Shown: positions 12,214 to 26,082, numbered from the stretch's first letter. The stretch is 64,000 nucleotides of DNA from a candidate division FCPU426 bacterium (GCA_963796105.1 CAWCKJ010000009.1:23068-87067), one strand, 5' to 3'. A program made the numbers and translations. The notes: generated by a model from the sequence alone, not told the origin.

Positions 12214-15200
12214 TTACTGTTTCACCAGAATCTTGAGCGTTTGCCTGGCGATCACGTGATCTCCGGAGTCCTTCTGCTCGGTCTTGCAGATGTAGAGCCC
12301 GCTGGCGATCCCAGCCGCATTCCATGCCGCCTGGCTGGTCCCTGCAACGCCCCTCACTTCCGTCACCAGTTCTCCCGCCAGGTCGTAAATCTTGACACTC
12401 AGGCTCAATCCCGGCACCGCACCCTGGAAGGTCACGATCTTGATTCCGTCTGTCAGGGGGTTCGGATAGGCCCAAACCTTGGCAAGGGATGGCTTCGGGT
12501 TGTTCACCACCAGAACAGAAGTGACGATCATCGTCTCCCCGCCCTTCCCGTCGGTGGAATGCACTTCGATAAAGTAGTTCCCGTTGGGTACGACCGTCCC
12601 ATTGGAAGCGTACCCGTCCCAAACCACCTGTACCCCATTATTAGTCTTAATGGTTAGTGTTCCGTCCGTCGGGGAACCCGGCTCTAACACCCCGCTGGAC
12701 AATTTTACCGAGGTGATCACCACCCCCTGGGGGTTTTCCACCACGCTATACAGCGACCGCACGATCTCCCCTGCTTCGTTGTAGATGTCGATGGTTACCT
12801 TCTCCAACTGCCTGCTCACCACCACGTTCAAGATGACGCTCGAGTCCACGCCGAACGAGTCGATATTGTCCACCTTGAGGTAGTAATCCCCGTTGGGGAC
12901 CGGGCTTCCATCCTGGTTCGTCCCGTCCCACACCGTGATGAAGTGGTTCTGATCCATGATTGTCACGGGGCTGTTTAAGCCGTTGATCAAGTTCCCGTTC
13001 TGAAATTGCAGGTTCACCAAGGGCTGGGAATATTCGGTCACTAGAAGGGTCTTCACCAGCTCCCCCGCCTCGTTGTAAACCCCAATTCGAACCGTGTAGT
13101 TCCCCATGACCATGAGGGTCGCGCAGGCCGACTTTGACAAGGACCCCGGGTAGGAGTAGGCCGCGCAGTTCACCAGGGGCCCACCCTGGGTGAAGGTGTT
13201 GATGGTGACAATGTAGCTTAGCTGATAGTTTCCAGGGGCCAGAGTCGGGAAAGTCCAGTTCATGACCGTCACCCCGCCCGCCACGTTCGTAACCGCAGAG
13301 GTCCCGGCCGGAGAAGTCCCGAAGGATACGAAACTGCATTGGGCCGGCAGGGGGTCGCTCACCGTCAACCCAGTCACGAAGTTATAGGCCACGTTCACGT
13401 TCAGGGTGTAGGTCACAGCGTCCCCCGGCAGCCCTTGGGGCTCGGATTCCAGCTTTTGCAGGGTCACCACCGCGGTAGGGGTGGGAGTCCAGGTCGGCGT
13501 AAAGGTGTTAGTGGGCGTGTTGGTGTTCGTCGGGGTATAGGTTTTTGTTGGGGTATTGGTCGGGGTCGGCGTATTCGTGGGGGTAAAGGTATTGGTTGGA
13601 GTGAAAGTGTTGGTCGGGGTGGGGGTATTCGTCGGCGTGTTGGTATTGGTTGGCGTGTAGGTCGGCGTAGGAGTGTTGGTATTCGTCGGCGTGTTGGTGG
13701 GGGTAAATGTGTTGGTCGGAGTATATGTGTTGGTCGGCGTATAGGTCGACGTGGGGGTTGGAGTATTCGTCGGGGTGTAAGTGTTCGTTGGGGTGTTCGT
13801 CGGGGTAAAGGTATTGGTCGGCGTGGGAGTGTTGGTCAGGGTAAAGGACGGGGTGGGTGTCGGGGTATTGGTGGGGGTGTAAGTGTTCGTCGCCGTGTTG
13901 GTATTGGTAGGAGTGGGGGTATTCGTCGGCGTATAGGTGGAGGTATTTGTGTTGGTCGGTGTGGGTGTCGGAGTGTTTGTCTGCGTATTCGTGGGGCTGT
14001 TGGTATTCGTCGGCGTGTTGCTATTGGTGTTGGTCGGCGTGTTCGTCGGGGTATTCGTCGGGGTAAAGGTATTAGTCGGCGTAGAGGTTGGTGTATTTGT
14101 CGGTGTACTCGTGGGGCTATTGGTTTTAGTCGGCGTGTTGGTGTTTGTCGGAGTCGGGGTATTTGTGGGTGTGTAGGTAGATGTACTGGTGTTGGTGGGT
14201 GTAGGGGTAGGTGTATTGGTCGGCGTATTCGTGGGGGTGTTGGTATTCGTGGGAGTGTAGCTGGGGGTGCTGGTCGGGTTATTCGTCGGCGTGCTTGTAG
14301 GTGTGGAAGTCGGGGTACTCGTCGAGGTGTTTGTCGGGGTGGGGGTCGCAGTGTTGGTGTTGGTTGGAGTTGGGGTATTCGTGGGTGTGGGGGTAGGCGT
14401 ACTTGTGGGTGTATTCGTCGAGGTAAAGGAATTGGTCGGCGTAGGGGTCGGTGTACTCGTTGGTGTGGAAGTGGGCGTGTTGGTATTGGTGGGAGTGTTT
14501 GTCGAAGTGGGGGTCGGGGTCGGAGTGTAAGAATTCGTCGGGGTAGGCGTCGGGGACTGAGTTCCGGTCGAGGTCAAGGTGGGCGTCGGAGTGTTTGTTG
14601 GTGTGGGTGTCGAAGTGGAGGTATTGGTTGGGGTGGGGGTAGGCGTGTTTGTCGGTGTATTAGTTGGAGTATTCGTAGGCGTGGGCGTTGAAGTGGCCGT
14701 AGGTGTATTGGTCGGTGTATTCGTTGGAGTATTAGTGGGCGTTAGAGTGGGCGTATTCGTAGGCGTAGGGGTCGGAGTGTTTGTTCGCGTAGGTGTCGAA
14801 GTGGAGGTATTGGTTGGAGTTGGGGTAGGCGTATTTGTCGGCGTGTTAGTCGAAGTATTGGTCGAGGTGGGCGTAGGGGTGTTCGTCGGAGTTGGAGTAG
14901 GTGTGTTTGTCGGCGTATTGGTCGGGGTATTTGTAGGAGTAGGAGTGAATGTGACTGTGGGTGTATTCGTCGGAGTCGCCGTAGGGGTTGGAGTAAAGGT
15001 ATTGGTAAAGGTATTTGTCGGGGACTGGGTTCCGGTTGGAGTAAGGGTGGGAGTCGGCGTGTTCGTCGGTGTCGAGGTCAATGTTGGTGTCGGGGTGGTG
15101 GTAGGCGTGTTCGTGGGTGTGGGGGTCGGGGTACTCGTCGGCGTATTCGTCGGAGTAGGGGTGGGAGTGGCCGTAGGGGTCGGGGTCGGAGTGTTCGTGG

Positions 15201-23200: not shown

Positions 23201-26082
23201 ATGGTAGGAGTATTCGTGGGCGACTGGGTCCCGGTTGGGGTATTTGTGGGTGTAGGGGTAATGGTCGGGGTCGGCGTGGGTGTGGGAGTAGGCGTAGTCG
23301 TTGGGGTATTGGTCGTGGTCGGCGTGGGCGTCCTGGTCGGGGTATTCGTGGGCGTCGGGGTAGGTGTGGTTGTCGGTGTTGGAGTAGGAGTGCGTGTGGG
23401 AGTTGGGGTTGGCGTGTTGGTTGGTGTTGGAGTAGGAGTTGTTGTTGGGGTGGGTGTCGGGGTATTGGTAGGGGTCGGCGTTGGAGTCCTCGTCGGAGTG
23501 GGCGTTGGGGTGGTTGTGGGTGTTGGTGTGGGCGTGTTGGTGGGTGTATTGGTAGGAGTCGGAGTGGGAGTGTTGGTCGGGGTTCGAGTCGGTGTTGGCG
23601 TTGGCGTGTTGGTAGGGGTCGGAGTGGGGGTATTGGTCGGGGTGGGAGTGGGAGTGGTTGTCGGCGTCGGTGTAGGTGTCCTAGTCGGGGTCGGGGTGGG
23701 TGTGTTGGTAGGAGTTGGAGTCGGTGTCGTGGTCGGGGTTGGAGTAGGCGTGTTGGTGGGCGTAGGAGTTGGGGTTCTCGTAGGGGTTGGTGTCGGGGTC
23801 GTAGTGGGTGTAGGAGTAGGCGTATTGGTAGGGGTCGGGCTAGGAGTAGGGGTGGGCGTGGGGGTGGGTGTCCTGGTAGGTGTGGGCGTAGGAGTTACGG
23901 TTGGGGTTGGGGTAGGTGTGTTAGTGGGAGTCGGGGTGGGTGTTGTTGTGGGTGTGGGTGTCGGGGTACGTGTAGGAGTCGGTGTGGGTGAAGGCGTCGG
24001 GGTTGGTGTCGGGGTGTTAGTAGGGGTTGGAGTCCTGGTTGGCGTAGGGGTCGGGGAAACAGTTGGCGTGGGGGTTGGTGAGGGTGTGGGGGTTGGGGTA
24101 TTTGTGGGGGTAGGTGTTGGAGTTCTGGTCGGGGTGTTAGTCGGCGTCGGAGTAGGTGTATTGGTTGGGGTCGGTGTGGGTGTTCGAGTAGGGGTTGGAG
24201 ATGGCGTTGGGGTCGGCGTGGGGGTTGGCGTATTAGTTGGAGTGTTTGTCGGGGTGGGTGTCGGCGTCCTCGTGGGTGTGGGGGTAGGTGAAGGCGTTGG
24301 TGTGGGAGTGGGAGTGTTGGTGGGTGTTGGAGTTGGGGTCCTAGTCGGGGTAGGGGTAGGAGTCGGGGTATTGGTGGGTGTGGGGGTTGGGGTCAGGCTC
24401 CTGGTTGGCGTTGGAGAAGGAGTGGGAGTTGGGGTATTGGTACGGGTAGGAGTCGGTGTATAAGTGAATGTTGGAGTATAAGTGTAAGTATATGTGTAAG
24501 TATATGTAAAGGTCGGGGTACTGCACTGTTGGGTGATGGCTACGGTACTAGTGGTCAATGGACAGCCGGAAATCAATTCGGAATAATCAGTAAATACTGA
24601 ACAGTTGGCTGGTTGGCTATTGAATTGATAATTCAATTCCCAAGTTACGCATTGACTGGGTGCCAATCCAAAATAAACAATGGTTGGAGGAACACTGTTA
24701 TTGCCGCCGGTAGGAGCCGCATAACTGACCCCGGCACCTGTCACATGAGTGTTTGCGTCATTCATGTTGCAACCGCTGGTATCGCCGCAAAAGCCCAATA
24801 AAGCCAGGTTTCCGCCGGCGTATCCCGTGGCTACATCCGTAATGGTTACTGACGCTTGGGTAACAGTGCCACTATTGCAAACCGCGATATCGAAAGTAAC
24901 ACCGGTTCCTCCTTGGAAATTGGCCGGAAGGGTGTTCGCAAGCTTTTTCGATATCGTGAAGGGATTTACTCCGACAGTTACCGCACCTGGCACTCCCGTA
25001 CCGGCGCTGCTGGTGACCGAGGCCGTGTTGGGATAGTTGCCTGTACATGCAGACCCCACCTGCTCAACAACTTTCAAGGTCACCGGAGTCTGACAGGCAG
25101 TCAGGTTGCCGACGCTCCAGGTGAGAGTGCCCCCCGAGTAAGTCGCGGTTCCCTGCCCCGCCGTGGCGCTCGTGTAAGTGAAACAACTCGGCAATGGATC
25201 TGTGACTGTGACGTTGGTTTCCGCCGCGATGTTATAAACACTCAAGTTCCGGAAAGTGATGTCACCCTGGTTCGCCTGAAAGCCGAAATCACCTGTAGAA
25301 TAGGTATTCAGGTTGTTGTCCGTGACTGTCAACTGCCAGCCCGGTTCCGCCGTGCCCGATTGCCATATTTTCGCTAAAAGCTGGTTGCCGCAAATGCGCA
25401 CGCGGTAGGAAAACCAGGTGTTGCGCGAAATGCAGGGAACTGTGGCCTGGGTGGTGGTGGTGTTGTTCCCATCAGTAAAGGAAGTATTGGTACAAGAACT
25501 TCCTTGAACTGTGTCGTAGAAAAGCCTGCTGGTTCCATTACAAGTATCGCTCAACTGCCATTGGTCGGCCCGGAGCATGAAATATTGCTGGCAGTTGGCG
25601 TAGCGCGGTATAAAAACAGTGTCGTCATCGCCGGAGAGAGCTGAATCGGGAAGGCAAGACTCGTAGGTAAATTCAACATTCGGCCCAACTGACACGTTGG
25701 ATATGATTTGGGGGTATTGGCTTACCGCCGCTGAGTTGTATGGCCCGTAATTAAGACCCGTGCATCCCCCGGTTTCAGCCCGGATTCCCCAGGAAGCTCC
25801 GGTCCAACCATAGGTCGCTCCACTGCTGGCTGTCCCTGCGTTGGTCCAGCCCGTTGGGACAGATCCGCTGGTTAAAGCATAGGAATCGACTAGGTCCGAG
25901 GCTGTGTCGCCTGGTTGCACCACAAGGGTGTAGGTGATGGGAGCGCAGGGTAAGTAAGAAGTATTGTCCGCGATCTTGGTAACCATGGCGGCGTTCGCAG
26001 GCAAGAAGGAACAAACGACTAATGCCAAAACTATTAAAAAACTAAGAGACCGGCGAACGGTCAGGTTATCAATTTTTTTCAT
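20203..26082 (-). CDS. Giant secreted Thr/Pro-rich surface protein B (1959 aa), paralog of A with a different head (ConA/DUF1080-like insert in DUF11-like domain)
   Basis: Signal peptide ending [43 protein letters not shown]; ~1020 aa stalk; the C-terminal ~420 aa aligns with protein A. Confidence 0.88.
21465..24520 (-). repeat. Low-complexity X-T-P-T coding repeat (stalk of protein B)
   Basis: Strict Thr/Ser dyad periodicity with scrambled synonymous codons. Confidence 0.95.

Follow-up and report, generated by a model that had tools for sequence, protein, structure and literature searches.

The window, a stretch of 64,000 nucleotides, contains a tandem pair of genes for giant surface proteins, which are probably Sec-exported fibrillar adhesins directed by a C-terminal domain (CTD) into a reduced, T9SS-like pathway. 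Gene 1 (12214..19695) encodes P0001 with 2493 aa and gene 2 (20203..26082) encodes P0002 with 1959 aa; both genes and all features described below lie on the minus strand, unless stated otherwise. The first-pass annotation had proposed a head, stalk and base organization, and the computed anatomy of the two intact open reading frames bears this out. Both proteins have a signal peptide, a head of about 525 aa, a Thr-rich stalk, and a base of about 420 aa (head, stalk and base at residues 1-526, 527-2074 and 2075-2493 of P0001, and 1-522, 523-1539 and 1540-1959 of P0002). Each head contains 19 Cys; where head and stalk meet, one protein has [12 protein letters not shown] and its counterpart [11 protein letters not shown]. 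The signal peptides, read from the translation, comprise residues 1-35 of P0001 (19591..19695; basic n-region, hydrophobic core, ending in LSA ahead of Q), with a helix predicted by AF2 at residues 8-28, and residues 1-31 of P0002 (25990..26082; ending in ANA ahead of A). A common signal peptide had been claimed; each protein indeed has one, but the two sequences are not alike.

The bases of P0001 and P0002 are 71% identical over 419 aa and consist of a DUF11/CLIPPER domain, two FlgD-Ig repeats, and the CTD, in this order. All profiles that the first-pass annotation had suggested for the base exceed their curated cut-offs, i.e., DUF11 with 31/35 bits in P0001/P0002 (cut-off 24.6), FlgD_ig with 63/62 bits (cut-off 27), and TIGR04183 with 38.1/37.2 bits (cut-off 23). 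The DUF11/CLIPPER domain is found at 13105..13473 in gene 1 (31.1 bits; Lys-Asp-Asn triad, aligned with the P0002 base) and at 21094..21465 in gene 2. The AF2 model of the latter (pLDDT about 90) superimposes on 9ifr_A with Z 15.6 and an rmsd of 1.9 over 117 aa (25% identity), and the profile of the P0002 base matches the same chain with E 1.6e-6. Its residues K8/D41/N103 occupy the positions of Lys715/Asp748/Asn806 in 9IFR, and the triad is conserved in the base alignment. The two FlgD-Ig-like beta-sandwich repeats follow at 12508..13098 in gene 1 (63.3 bits, three stretches) and at 20497..21087 in gene 2 (base residues 127-220 and 224-323; 61.9 bits), where they match FlgD chains in profile searches with E 0.001-0.013. 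They are clear repeats of each other (z 16.9, a score reached by 0 of 300 shuffles).

By both curated models the tail is classified as a T9SS type A CTD, as had been supposed from its sorting-signal pattern: in addition to TIGR04183, Por_Secre_tail (PF18962) matches with 45.5 bits in P0001 (12217..12477) and 45.7 bits in P0002 (20206..20466, base residues 334-420; cut-off 27). Seven strands are predicted in the P0002 CTD, and its profile matches the CTD of PorU (6za2_A, residues 1053-1152) with E 0.009. Residues P338, N339, Y364, A367-E369, S392, G393 and Y395 are invariant over 12 bases from several genomes. All 48 TIGR04183 matches in the genome are located at the extreme C-terminus; 45 end at most 15 aa before the stop, and the other three are truncated model matches that end 18-26 aa before it. 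The tail is not a CTD of type B, for which TIGR04131 gave 20.7/18.7 bits, below its cut-off of 35.

In the tree of SprA proteins, the genome belongs to a group with a support of 100 whose other loci carry the labels Goldiibacteriota, Firestonebacteria and Elusimicrobiota; Gemmatimonadota, Bacteroidota and Ignavibacteriota are placed outside this group. At NCBI the FCB group includes neither Goldiibacteriota nor Elusimicrobiota, and RpoD has kept region 1.1, as had been noted before. These sequence comparisons place the host in an uncultured lineage outside Bacteroidota/FCB.

The genome contains genes for SprA and for the PorV family. The SprA-like open reading frame of 2017 aa reaches 207.6 bits with TIGR04189 (cut-off 200), a Pfam search with this protein found no family, and SprA-like open reading frames are present in 58 of 61 sampled genomes of the phylum. 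In 10 of 10 relatives with available flanks sprA is followed by a conserved open reading frame of 1618 aa without a family match. The PorV/PorQ family has 17 matches in the genome and 8-40 matches per genome in 41 of 41 genomes of the phylum. All five PorV-like proteins that were tested pass NF033709 (123-175 bits, cut-off 90), while the PorV equivalog model stays below threshold (75 bits, cut-off 250). At least four of 14 PorV-like loci lie directly downstream of a gene for a CTD protein. PorV_fam also matches in the control genome of Bacteroides thetaiotaomicron, which is not known to have a T9SS, and therefore the family alone is not proof of a T9SS. Bacteroides spp. have been noted as an exception (PMC11285876).

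Docking of the P0002 CTD on a PorV-like barrel is predicted by a complex model with an ipSAE of 0.91, compared to 0.30 for the best of three controls, and the mark that it passes separates 58 of 80 solved complexes, which attain it, from mismatched pairs, of which 2 of 110 do. At least 92% of the contacts agree between runs, the partner pLDDT is at least 85, and the contacts involve CTD residues 335-345, 362-371, 389-398 and 413-420, which coincide with the conserved motifs. The model used one hand-chosen paralog of the 17 barrels, and its pass may reflect a memory of solved T9SS complexes.

The head of P0001 starts with a beta jelly-roll domain (about residues 36-225; 19021..19590; pLDDT mostly 82-97), and its predicted fold resembles lectins and CBM67, in line with the lectin-like head proposed earlier. 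VIA-align matched model residues 35-179 to the Pleurotus ostreatus lectin 6kbj_A (Z 10.3, rmsd 2.7, 123 aa, 18% identity) and the domain to residues 167-299 of the rhamnosidase 3w5n_A, whose CBM67 is a rhamnose-binding module (Z 9.9, rmsd 3.1, 124 aa), with 18-19% identity over about residues 35-186, and such Z values can come from the jelly-roll arrangement in common. In contrast to this likeness of fold, Pfam and NCBIfam profiles yielded no match to the domain. The second domain (about residues 226-375; 18571..19020) resembles pilin/adhesin-type Ig domains of the CnaA/CLIPPER kind, namely EbpB (9lj6_A, Z 12.1), SdrD (4jdz_A, Z 11.8), and CLIPPER (9ifr_A, Z 11.7, rmsd 2.5, 122 aa). The third region (residues 376-526; 18118..18570), which ends in the C-A-T-T junction, is poorly modelled (pLDDT 32-55). 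The N-terminal module of the P0002 head (residues 32-285; 25228..25989) is possibly concanavalin-like, of the 3-keto-disaccharide hydrolase/DUF1080 type: PF06439 matches residues 206-282 below its cut-off (E 0.0071, 16.9 bits versus 26.8), and the homolog P0127 has the same weak match (E 0.0018). All leads for this module in Atlas were below 0.9, and a sequence search of the PDB gave no match. DUF11/CLIPPER-type Ig domains follow (24517..25227; DUF11 49.3 bits in two stretches, DUF7507 weak) and end in the C-S-T junction. The heads had been called unrelated, and this holds for the N-terminal modules alone, as both heads carry DUF11-type Ig parts; the third region of P0001 is weakly similar to the DUF11 part of the P0002 head (E 0.001, the best head-to-head BLASTP match).

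The stalks comprise 52-62% of each protein, 1548 aa in P0001 (13474..18117; 51% T, 30% P, 10% N) and 1017 aa in P0002 (21466..24516; periodic arrays of 72 bp and 24 bp). Thr occupies 98.3% and 96.8% of the alternate positions, respectively, and the GC skew over the P0001 stalk is +0.62 to +0.66 on the plus strand. A 144-bp (48-aa) unit in gene 1 (16664..17821, given without strand; Tandem Repeats Finder score 2239) is present in 8.0 copies with 98% identity, which indicates a recent expansion of this stalk. A (T-X)n stalk precedes the base in nine of nine relatives examined. The arithmetic behind the estimated reach of about 0.4 and 0.3 micrometres is correct, but it assumes a fully extended chain, and the values are thus upper bounds.

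The count of paralogs that had been suggested gave 12 base copies and 10 full-length paralogs in the genome; related genomes contain 5-22 base copies each. The earlier idea of interchangeable heads is supported, with exchange taking place on a shared base. Eleven bases are 87-98% identical despite unrelated heads; starting about 1.6 kb ahead of the stop, their DNA matches that of P0002 at 96-100%, a value that drops to 21-31% just beyond the stop. We read the base as a cassette that recombination keeps nearly uniform across the paralogs and on which different heads are displayed. The head of P0001 represents a class of five paralogs in the genome (51-74% identical), and that of P0002 a class of two (83% identical). 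A link of neighbouring CAZymes to adhesion to plant polysaccharide was not upheld, as none of 10 open reading frames flanking other paralogs encodes a CAZyme.

The search for porV, porU, sprA and gldKLMN was otherwise negative. GldL, GldM and GldN had no match in profile searches of the genome, with positive controls matched, GldK matches (61-63 bits, cut-off 350) covered generic FGE-sulfatase parts only, and PorU matches covered only the CTD end. Pfam searches of 13 family genomes retrieved neither Peptidase_C25 nor GldM_1st, and a PorP/SprF model without positive control gave no match in the genome and one weak match in nine family genomes. Parts of the GldL, GldM, GldN and PorU type are needed for secretion in Bacteroidota, and therefore the pathway of this genome may have another mode of action or may not function, and we call it T9SS-like rather than a complete T9SS. 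Of the T9SS-like export and anchoring system that had been proposed for another lineage, the translocon and barrel families were thus found, but motor and sortase were not. It is possible, but doubtful, that the system is complete and the GldK/L/M/N and PorU equivalents are too divergent for Bacteroidota-trained models, in which case the two proteins would be ordinary cargo of a divergent host. SprA, itself just above its cut-off and missed by Pfam, attests to the divergence of the lineage, GldM also went undetected in nine of nine genomes with SprA relatives, some of which bear the labels Ignavibacteriota and Bacteroidota, and the 1618-aa protein could be an unrecognised component. However, among 31 genomes from the phylum of G067 the same searches recovered GldM in seven and, in five GldM-positive genomes, GldL (5/5), GldN (5/5) and PorU (4/5), yet none of them in this genome, and the broader Pfam models remained empty in all 13 family genomes.

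The missing motor and sortase, together with the PorV_fam matches in a genome without T9SS, could also mean that the CTD is merely a structural Ig-like module, that the proteins take another route to the surface or medium, and that the SprA-like protein serves another purpose. We regard this as very unlikely, because the CTD matches are strictly C-terminal, CTD and SprA co-occur across the phylum, CTD genes adjoin PorV-like genes, and the conserved motifs form the predicted interface with the barrel. The IY(N/D)xAGE(L/I)V motif, the one feature common to the CTD and the two preceding FlgD-Ig repeats, speaks for this reading, but their pairwise likeness is weak (z 2-3, a level attained by 5 and 10 of 300 shuffles). 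The many paralogs, the large share of the stalks, and the ready expansion of their arrays would also fit proteins that are not specific adhesins but form a densely packed coat or brush of glycoprotein, serving as glycocalyx, as spacer, or as protection from phages and grazers, with a minor role for the heads. This is an unlikely explanation, as the heads are folded, Cys-rich, conserved as classes and diversified by exchange, the first has a lectin/CBM-like fold, and the base contains an isopeptide-type domain, which points to a load-bearing role.

For the adhesin reading, we infer that the proteins would cross the inner membrane by Sec, that the CTD would be recognised by an outer-membrane barrel of the PorV/PorQ family, and that passage through the outer membrane would use the SprA/Sov-like translocon. 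Because a PorU sortase is not detectable, the CTD is likely to remain attached to a barrel of the PorV/PorQ type or to another envelope component and would thus anchor the base, with its isopeptide-type CLIPPER and two FlgD-Ig domains. The (Thr-X)n tether of 1000-1550 residues would present a distal binding head, made of the lectin/CBM67-like jelly-roll and the pilin-type Ig domain in P0001, and possibly of a concanavalin-like module and DUF11 Ig domains in P0002. The tether is probably O-glycosylated and extended.

The Pro-Thr linkers ("PT boxes") found in secreted cellulases and the mucin-like stalks of serine-rich repeat adhesins are low-complexity, glycosylated Ser/Thr-rich spacers between folded modules. 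The stalks described here are likewise Thr/Pro-rich and presumably extended and O-glycosylated, but PT boxes have tens of residues, and here, in all the relatives that were inspected, Thr strictly alternates with a variable residue (P, N, F, S, A, Y). Type A cargo of Bacteroidota, such as RgpB, PorU and PorZ of Porphyromonas gingivalis, shares with P0001 and P0002 the N-terminal signal peptide, an Ig-like domain ahead of the CTD, and, at the C-terminus, a beta-sandwich signal recognised by TIGR04183 and PF18962; the PorU CTD is matched by profile. SprA/Sov and PorV-family proteins are likewise encoded, but PorU, GldL, GldM and GldN were not found here, the PorV/PorQ family is expanded, and the host is not an FCB member. 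According to PMC9143113, type A cargo is anchored to A-LPS by a sortase, an enzyme not visible in this genome.

SprB-type giant gliding adhesins have a type B CTD and are anchored by PorP/SprF-like barrels (PMC9143113, PMC12635249). They too are very large surface adhesins exported by a CTD, with anchoring proposed via a partner barrel, the gene for which often follows the cargo gene in the genome studied here. However, the CTD here is of type A, the partner barrels belong to the PorV/PorQ family, a gliding motor was not found in this genome, and the stalk is low-complexity (T-X)n instead of repeated folded domains. The fibrillar adhesin B9T28_05395 of Acinetobacter silvestris (PDB 9IFR) contains CLIPPER (DUF11) domains, and such adhesins are described with a stalk made up of CLIPPER or cadherin-like domains in tandem, and with an anchor that is OmpA-like (bioRxiv 10.1101/2025.04.25.650565). 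Compared with this excerpt, the head-stalk-anchor plan and the Lys/Asp/Asn isopeptide triad recur in P0001 and P0002, but CLIPPER only caps both ends of the Thr-X tether, and the anchor is a T9SS CTD. The system had been put forward as undescribed; the CTD signal is a known device, and the system is a variant, in a lineage outside FCB, rather than wholly undescribed.

Canonical SD sites, noted before for the housekeeping genes, are not evident upstream of either gene. Promoter-like sites precede gene 1 (ATGAAA-17-TATAAT, 10 of 12 positions; 19752..19780) and gene 2 (9 of 12; 26343..26371) in a consensus scan that returned 13 sites versus 7.1 expected.

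Genes 1 and 2 are each a single intact ORF on the minus strand (window positions 12214-19695 and 20203-26082), and their products, P0001 (2493 aa) and P0002 (1959 aa), share a three-part layout. Borders set by script divide P0001 into a head (residues 1-526, 19 Cys), a Thr-X stalk (527-2074, 1548 aa) and a base (2075-2493), and P0002 into a head (1-522, also 19 Cys), a stalk (523-1539, 1017 aa) and a base (1540-1959). Both translations begin with a Sec signal peptide, recognized by a basic n-region and a hydrophobic core, with predicted cleavage between LSA and Q in P0001 and between ANA and A in P0002. 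Promoter-like sites, found by consensus match only, lie upstream of gene 1 (19752-19780) and gene 2 (26343-26371), and a search of sequencing runs returned one DNA run with a small share (0.15 of sampled words) and listed no RNA run. In P0001 (window 19591-19695) and in the paralogs with its class of head, class A, Gln directly follows the predicted cleavage site (SA followed by QCTP), which recalls the "Q-rule" of Bacteroidetes, a term that the available part of PMC11285876 contains as a title in its reference list.

Thr occupies 98.3% of the alternate stalk positions in P0001 and 96.8% in P0002, the overall composition being about 50% T, 30% P and 8-10% N; this bias in the coding of the stalks accounts for the window profile's GC skew of +0.62 to +0.68. 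The gene 1 stalk contains a 144-bp unit repeated 8.0 times with 98% identity (16664-17821), and therefore growth of the stalk by tandem duplication has been recent. The first-pass annotation had let the stalks reach about 0.4 and 0.3 micrometres. The arithmetic is sound, and at 0.25-0.30 nm per residue the values of 0.39-0.46 and 0.25-0.31 micrometres are the maximum for a chain that is fully stretched and probably glycosylated; for a flexible chain of such a length, polymer models give an estimated reach of only tens of nanometres. An assembly artefact was rejected as an explanation in view of ten intact paralogs in the same genome, about 9-10 in a congener, and a (T-X)n stalk, its X varying, ahead of the base in all nine relatives examined.

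The bases of P0001 and P0002 are 71% identical. The composition previously read from the sequence was borne out by profile searches (Pfam, NCBIfam), in which all three domain types exceeded the curated cut-offs in both proteins: DUF11 (PF01345, 31.1 bits in P0001 and 35.1 bits in P0002, cut-off 24.6), FlgD_ig (PF13860, 63.3 and 61.9 bits, cut-off 27) and the T9SS type A sorting domain, the CTD (PF18962, 45.5 and 45.7 bits, cut-off 27; TIGR04183, 38.1 and 37.2 bits, cut-off 23). Twelve bases, taken from this genome, three MAGs and five related genomes, were aligned and yielded an AlphaFold (AF2) model with a mean pLDDT of 83.4. In this model, base residues 1-124 resemble the solved CLIPPER (DUF11) domain 9ifr_A (Z 15.6, rmsd 1.9, 117 aa, 25% identity), which the alignment profile also finds by sequence (E 1.6e-6), so that the domain belongs to CLIPPER/DUF11 by the Pfam cut-off and by its predicted CnaA-like fold. 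For the 9IFR domain (708-828), the accessible part of the original report describes a Lys715-Asn806 isopeptide with Asp748 as the catalyst (10.1101/2025.04.25.650565). The equivalent positions of the base are K8, D41 and N103; the Lys is present in 10/10 rows that reach it, and Asp and Asn are invariant in the 12 rows. This conservation makes it plausible that an isopeptide-locked, load-bearing domain sits at the junction of stalk and base.

The stretches at base residues 127-220 and 224-323 form a clear repeat pair (z 16.9; 0 of 300 shuffles), and the alignment profile weakly matches FlgD chains (E 0.001-0.013). The possibility that the CTD is a third copy of this repeat was rejected, because its pairwise z values are just 2-3. 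Residues 334-418 of the AF2 model form seven predicted strands (pLDDT 80-91 from residue 350), and the profile matches the CTD of PorU (6za2_A 1053-1152, E 0.009); the type A CTD fold is described in the available text of PMC11285876 as a seven-stranded 3+4 beta-sandwich. Fold searches with the whole base model gave lists filled by domains other than the CTD, Foldseek with the whole base and the head-1 models returned just tandem-Ig arrays (TM 0.12-0.25), and a search of PDB sequences with a single base sequence gave no match.

Lectin-like heads had also been proposed, and this is reasonably supported by modeling for P0001 and tentative for P0002. Between the two heads, the best match has an E of 0.001 and lies in a DUF11-like part. 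Pfam and NCBIfam gave no family for head 1, which has 124 representative relatives among 1.84 billion proteins; 41 of these, with the head at or near the N-terminus and nearly all under about 750 aa, were aligned. The resulting model has a pLDDT of 72.3 and is confident for residues 35-375. A VIA-align search against 48,161 chains matched residues 35-186 to a lectin of Pleurotus ostreatus (6kbj_A, Z 10.3, rmsd 2.7, 123 aa) and to residues 167-299 of the rhamnosidase 3w5n_A (Z 9.9, 124 aa), a region that we take to be a CBM67 module; the predicted fold would be of the jelly-roll type. Residues 225-368 resembled Ig domains of pilins and adhesins (EbpB, Z 12.1; CLIPPER, Z 11.7). The head-1 module also occurs in other metagenomic architectures, for example in the proteins P0003 and P0007, one example combining PQQ-type beta-propellers with a DPBB/Barwin domain and another showing a weak 3keto-disac_hyd match, and it is therefore a mobile binding module. 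Head 2 contains two DUF11 stretches (49.3 bits, cut-off 24.6) and has a sub-threshold match to 3keto-disac_hyd/DUF1080 (PF06439, E 0.0071, 16.9 bits, cut-off 26.8). One of its only two strong relatives, P0127, repeats this weak match (18.8 bits); with both values below the cut-off, membership in the 3-keto-disaccharide hydrolase family was rejected and the match kept as a lead only. A PDB sequence search with head 2 found nothing, and the ESM Atlas provided leads only (scores 0.87).

The count of paralogs that share the base turned out to be 12 copies in the genome (5.0 Mb, 16 contigs, 96.8% complete), namely ten full proteins of 1646-2493 aa, one base-only ORF and one split copy. Eleven of these bases are 87-98% identical to the P0002 base, and the P0001 base is the outlier at 71%, with an 83% counterpart in the congener G066. 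Five heads, that of P0001 among them, make up one class (51-74% identical), two with that of P0002 make up another (83%), and three stand alone. Unrelated heads are therefore carried on near-identical bases, and one head class occurs on both base types. The paralog at 1016029-1021896 of contig C4 has a class A head. Its DNA agrees with that of gene 2 at 96-100% over the last 1.6 kb or so ahead of the stop codon, and immediately past the stop the identity drops to 21-31%; this pattern is consistent with gene conversion or recombination limited to the base cassette. In each related genome of the family, 5-22 base matches were found. The base-only ORF (C4:630440-631693, 417 aa, 96% identical to the P0002 base) and the split giant copy (C6:522-3344 plus C6:3094-4203, beside C6:4320-9260) are possibly remnants of, or donors for, cassette recombination. 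An rve integrase gene (C4:976914-977750) adjoins the giant paralog C4:970411-975957.

By its position throughout the genome, the CTD is a probable sorting signal. All 48 TIGR04183 matches, in frames of 193 to 3077 aa, are C-terminal; 45 of the 48 end within 15 aa of the stop, and the other three are truncated model matches that end 18-26 aa before it. P0001 and P0002 share with type A cargo an over-cut-off domain at the extreme C-terminus and a Sec signal peptide.

The search for the export machinery that had been recommended was successful for the translocon and, at the level of the PorV/PorQ subfamily, for the barrels. An ORF of 2017 aa (C3:212289-218342) matches the SprA/Sov equivalog model TIGR04189 in four stretches with 207.6 bits (cut-off 200), Pfam assigning no family to it, and 58 of the 61 phylum genomes sampled have a SprA relative, in most cases a single one. 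The PorV/PorQ subfamily model NF033709 was passed by all five PorV-like ORFs put to it (123-175 bits, cut-off 90), compared to at most 75 bits with the PorV equivalog model NF033710 (cut-off 250). This family of outer-membrane barrels is expanded, with 17 matches in the genome (e.g., C12:79965-81338, C4:570439-572472, and the ORFs at C4:1232416 and C6:120628), and every one of the 41 phylum genomes sampled has 8-40. In at least four cases, a PorV-like gene comes immediately after a CTD-protein gene or overlaps it by 4 nt, which suggests dedicated pairs of cargo and barrel. LptF/LptG genes are found upstream of the sprA-like gene, and an IS1595-family transposase gene (C3:697927-698835) adjoins the best PorV-like gene. 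Directly 3' of the sprA-like gene lies an ORF of 1618 aa (C3:218356-223212; L105:13356-18212, plus strand), with weak fn3 matches only and no confident family. It is syntenic with sprA in 10/10 relatives of the family or order compared (33-41% identity) and is a candidate for an unrecognized SprA partner.

The same search did not find the motor, the ring or the sortase. GldL (TIGR03513), GldM (TIGR03517), GldN and PorP/SprF had no match in the genome, and GldM_1st (PF12081) and Peptidase_C25 (PF01364) were detected in none of 13 genomes of the family. PorU (NF033707) was matched only at model positions 962-1095, its CTD part, and GldK only by FGE-sulfatase parts (61-63 bits, cut-off 350), which are due to proteins with FGE-sulfatase domains and do not speak for a PorK ring. 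A 517-aa protein with an FGE-sulfatase domain is encoded in the window as well (42058-43611, minus strand). Positive controls covered four of these models, GldM, GldL, GldN and PorU: among 31 genomes from the phylum to which another genome, G067, belongs, 7 were positive for GldM, and five GldM-positive genomes had GldL (5/5), GldN (5/5) and PorU (4/5). Divergent forms of the motor proteins may nevertheless be present. GldM was also found in none of nine genomes with SprA relatives, labeled Ignavibacteriota, Bacteroidota, Goldiibacteriota, Firestonebacteria and Elusimicrobiota, and either the SprA-only state is widespread or the GldM model is narrow. Taken together, SprA/Sov was detected, and the GldL/PorL-GldM/PorM motor, the GldK/PorK-GldN/PorN ring and a PorU C25-type sortase were not. 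Therefore, the system is filed as T9SS-like and not as T9SS, and P0001 and P0002 as type A CTD-bearing fibrillar adhesins.

The suspicion that the host is not an ordinary member of the Bacteroidota or of the FCB group was supported. RpoD retains region 1.1; among the matches listed it is just 42-49% identical to proteins of Acidobacteriota, Desulfobacterota, Myxococcota and others, and gives no placement. A FastTree tree of SprA, which is a gene tree and not an organism tree, was based on a 645-aa segment and 63 rows, after 25 of 88 rows covering fewer than 350 query residues had been dropped. The order of the window forms a clade of 23 rows, within a group (support 100) with two others, one labeled Firestonebacteria/Goldiibacteriota, including a member of the same phylum, and one labeled Elusimicrobiota. 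This group is apart from Gemmatimonadota, Bacteroidota, Ignavibacteriota and Kryptoniota. By its kinship label the genome belongs to the phylum of that Goldiibacteriota-labeled row, NCBI places both Goldiibacteriota and Elusimicrobiota outside the FCB group, and the available text of Doud et al. (PMC7031533) has Goldbacteria adjoining Firestonebacteria and Elusimicrobia.

Contact between the CTD and a barrel was predicted for the best PorV-like ORF (318 aa) and base residues 326-420. The complex scored 0.91 versus 0.30 for the best of three controls; this mark was attained by 58 of 80 complexes with solved structures and by 2 of 110 mismatched pairs. The runs agreed in at least 92% of contacts, the pLDDT of the partner was at least 85, and the predicted barrel contacts coincide with invariant CTD motifs. 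T9SS complexes have already been solved, and therefore the model may have passed by likeness and not by binding of this pair.

We infer the export route, the anchoring, the glycosylation and the adhesion as follows. The proteins would be exported by Sec, their CTD would be recognized by a PorV/PorQ-type barrel, and they would pass through SprA. In T9SS type A cargo, PorU removes the CTD and links the protein to anionic LPS; in contrast, no PorU was found here, and because no sortase was seen, the CTD-barrel pair itself would retain the protein on the surface. A sturdy foot would be provided by the CLIPPER domain together with the FlgD-Ig domains, and from it the Thr-X tether would project the head. 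The available texts of PMC11285876 and PMC12635249 restrict type IX secretion to the Bacteroidota, or at most the FCB superphylum, and call it a phylum-specific system, respectively. Our search of the available literature found no description of T9SS parts in Goldbacteria, Firestonebacteria or Elusimicrobia, nor of T9SS cargo with a Thr-X stalk. It is conceivable, albeit rather doubtful, that a phylum-level non-FCB lineage in the Goldbacteria/Firestonebacteria/Elusimicrobiota neighborhood runs a motor-less, sortase-less relative of the T9SS, in which one SprA-type translocon serves together with dozens of cargo-dedicated PorV/PorQ-type barrels, and barrel-bound type A CTDs hold glycosylated Thr-X stalks, at most some 0.4 micrometre long and tipped with exchangeable lectin-like heads, either as the ancestral core of type IX secretion or as an independent simplification. 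If true, SprA-mediated export would not need the GldKLMN machinery.

The type A CTD, CLIPPER, FlgD-Ig and Pro/Thr linkers are already known as parts. New are their combination in Thr-X stalked, cassette-built adhesins, the setting in a lineage beyond the T9SS range given in the available texts of PMC11285876 and PMC12635249, and a conserved SprA with a much expanded PorV/PorQ family without detectable motor, ring and sortase. Outside the Bacteroidota and the FCB group, the type A CTD signal, SprA (58/61 genomes) and this expanded family (41/41) are conserved, and the motor, the ring and the sortase went undetected. If this holds, the lineage would offer a natural minimal system for asking what SprA and PorV do alone, as well as a case of cargo anchoring without PorU. 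The adhesin design is also unusual: a Thr-X tether of 1000-1550 residues, which alternates strictly and expands through duplication of repeats, connects the folded, exchangeable heads to an isopeptide-type base.

Adhesion to plant polysaccharide had been proposed from the surrounding CAZyme genes. The two genes are flanked by genes for a GH3 protein (8219-10600), an N-acylglucosamine 2-epimerase-like protein (10794-12098) and a GH127-like protein (26463-28505). This link was dropped as a trait of the family, because none of the 10 ORFs beside five to six other paralogs encodes a CAZyme. A further GH3 ORF on the minus strand (35872-37461), the N-terminal domain of which covers profile positions 191-313 only, may be truncated or have a mis-set start. 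A respiratory cluster on the minus strand (28570-34199) encodes a 933-aa multi-haem cytochrome c, a Rieske protein and a split cytochrome b, with one gene for its N-terminal and one for its C-terminal part.
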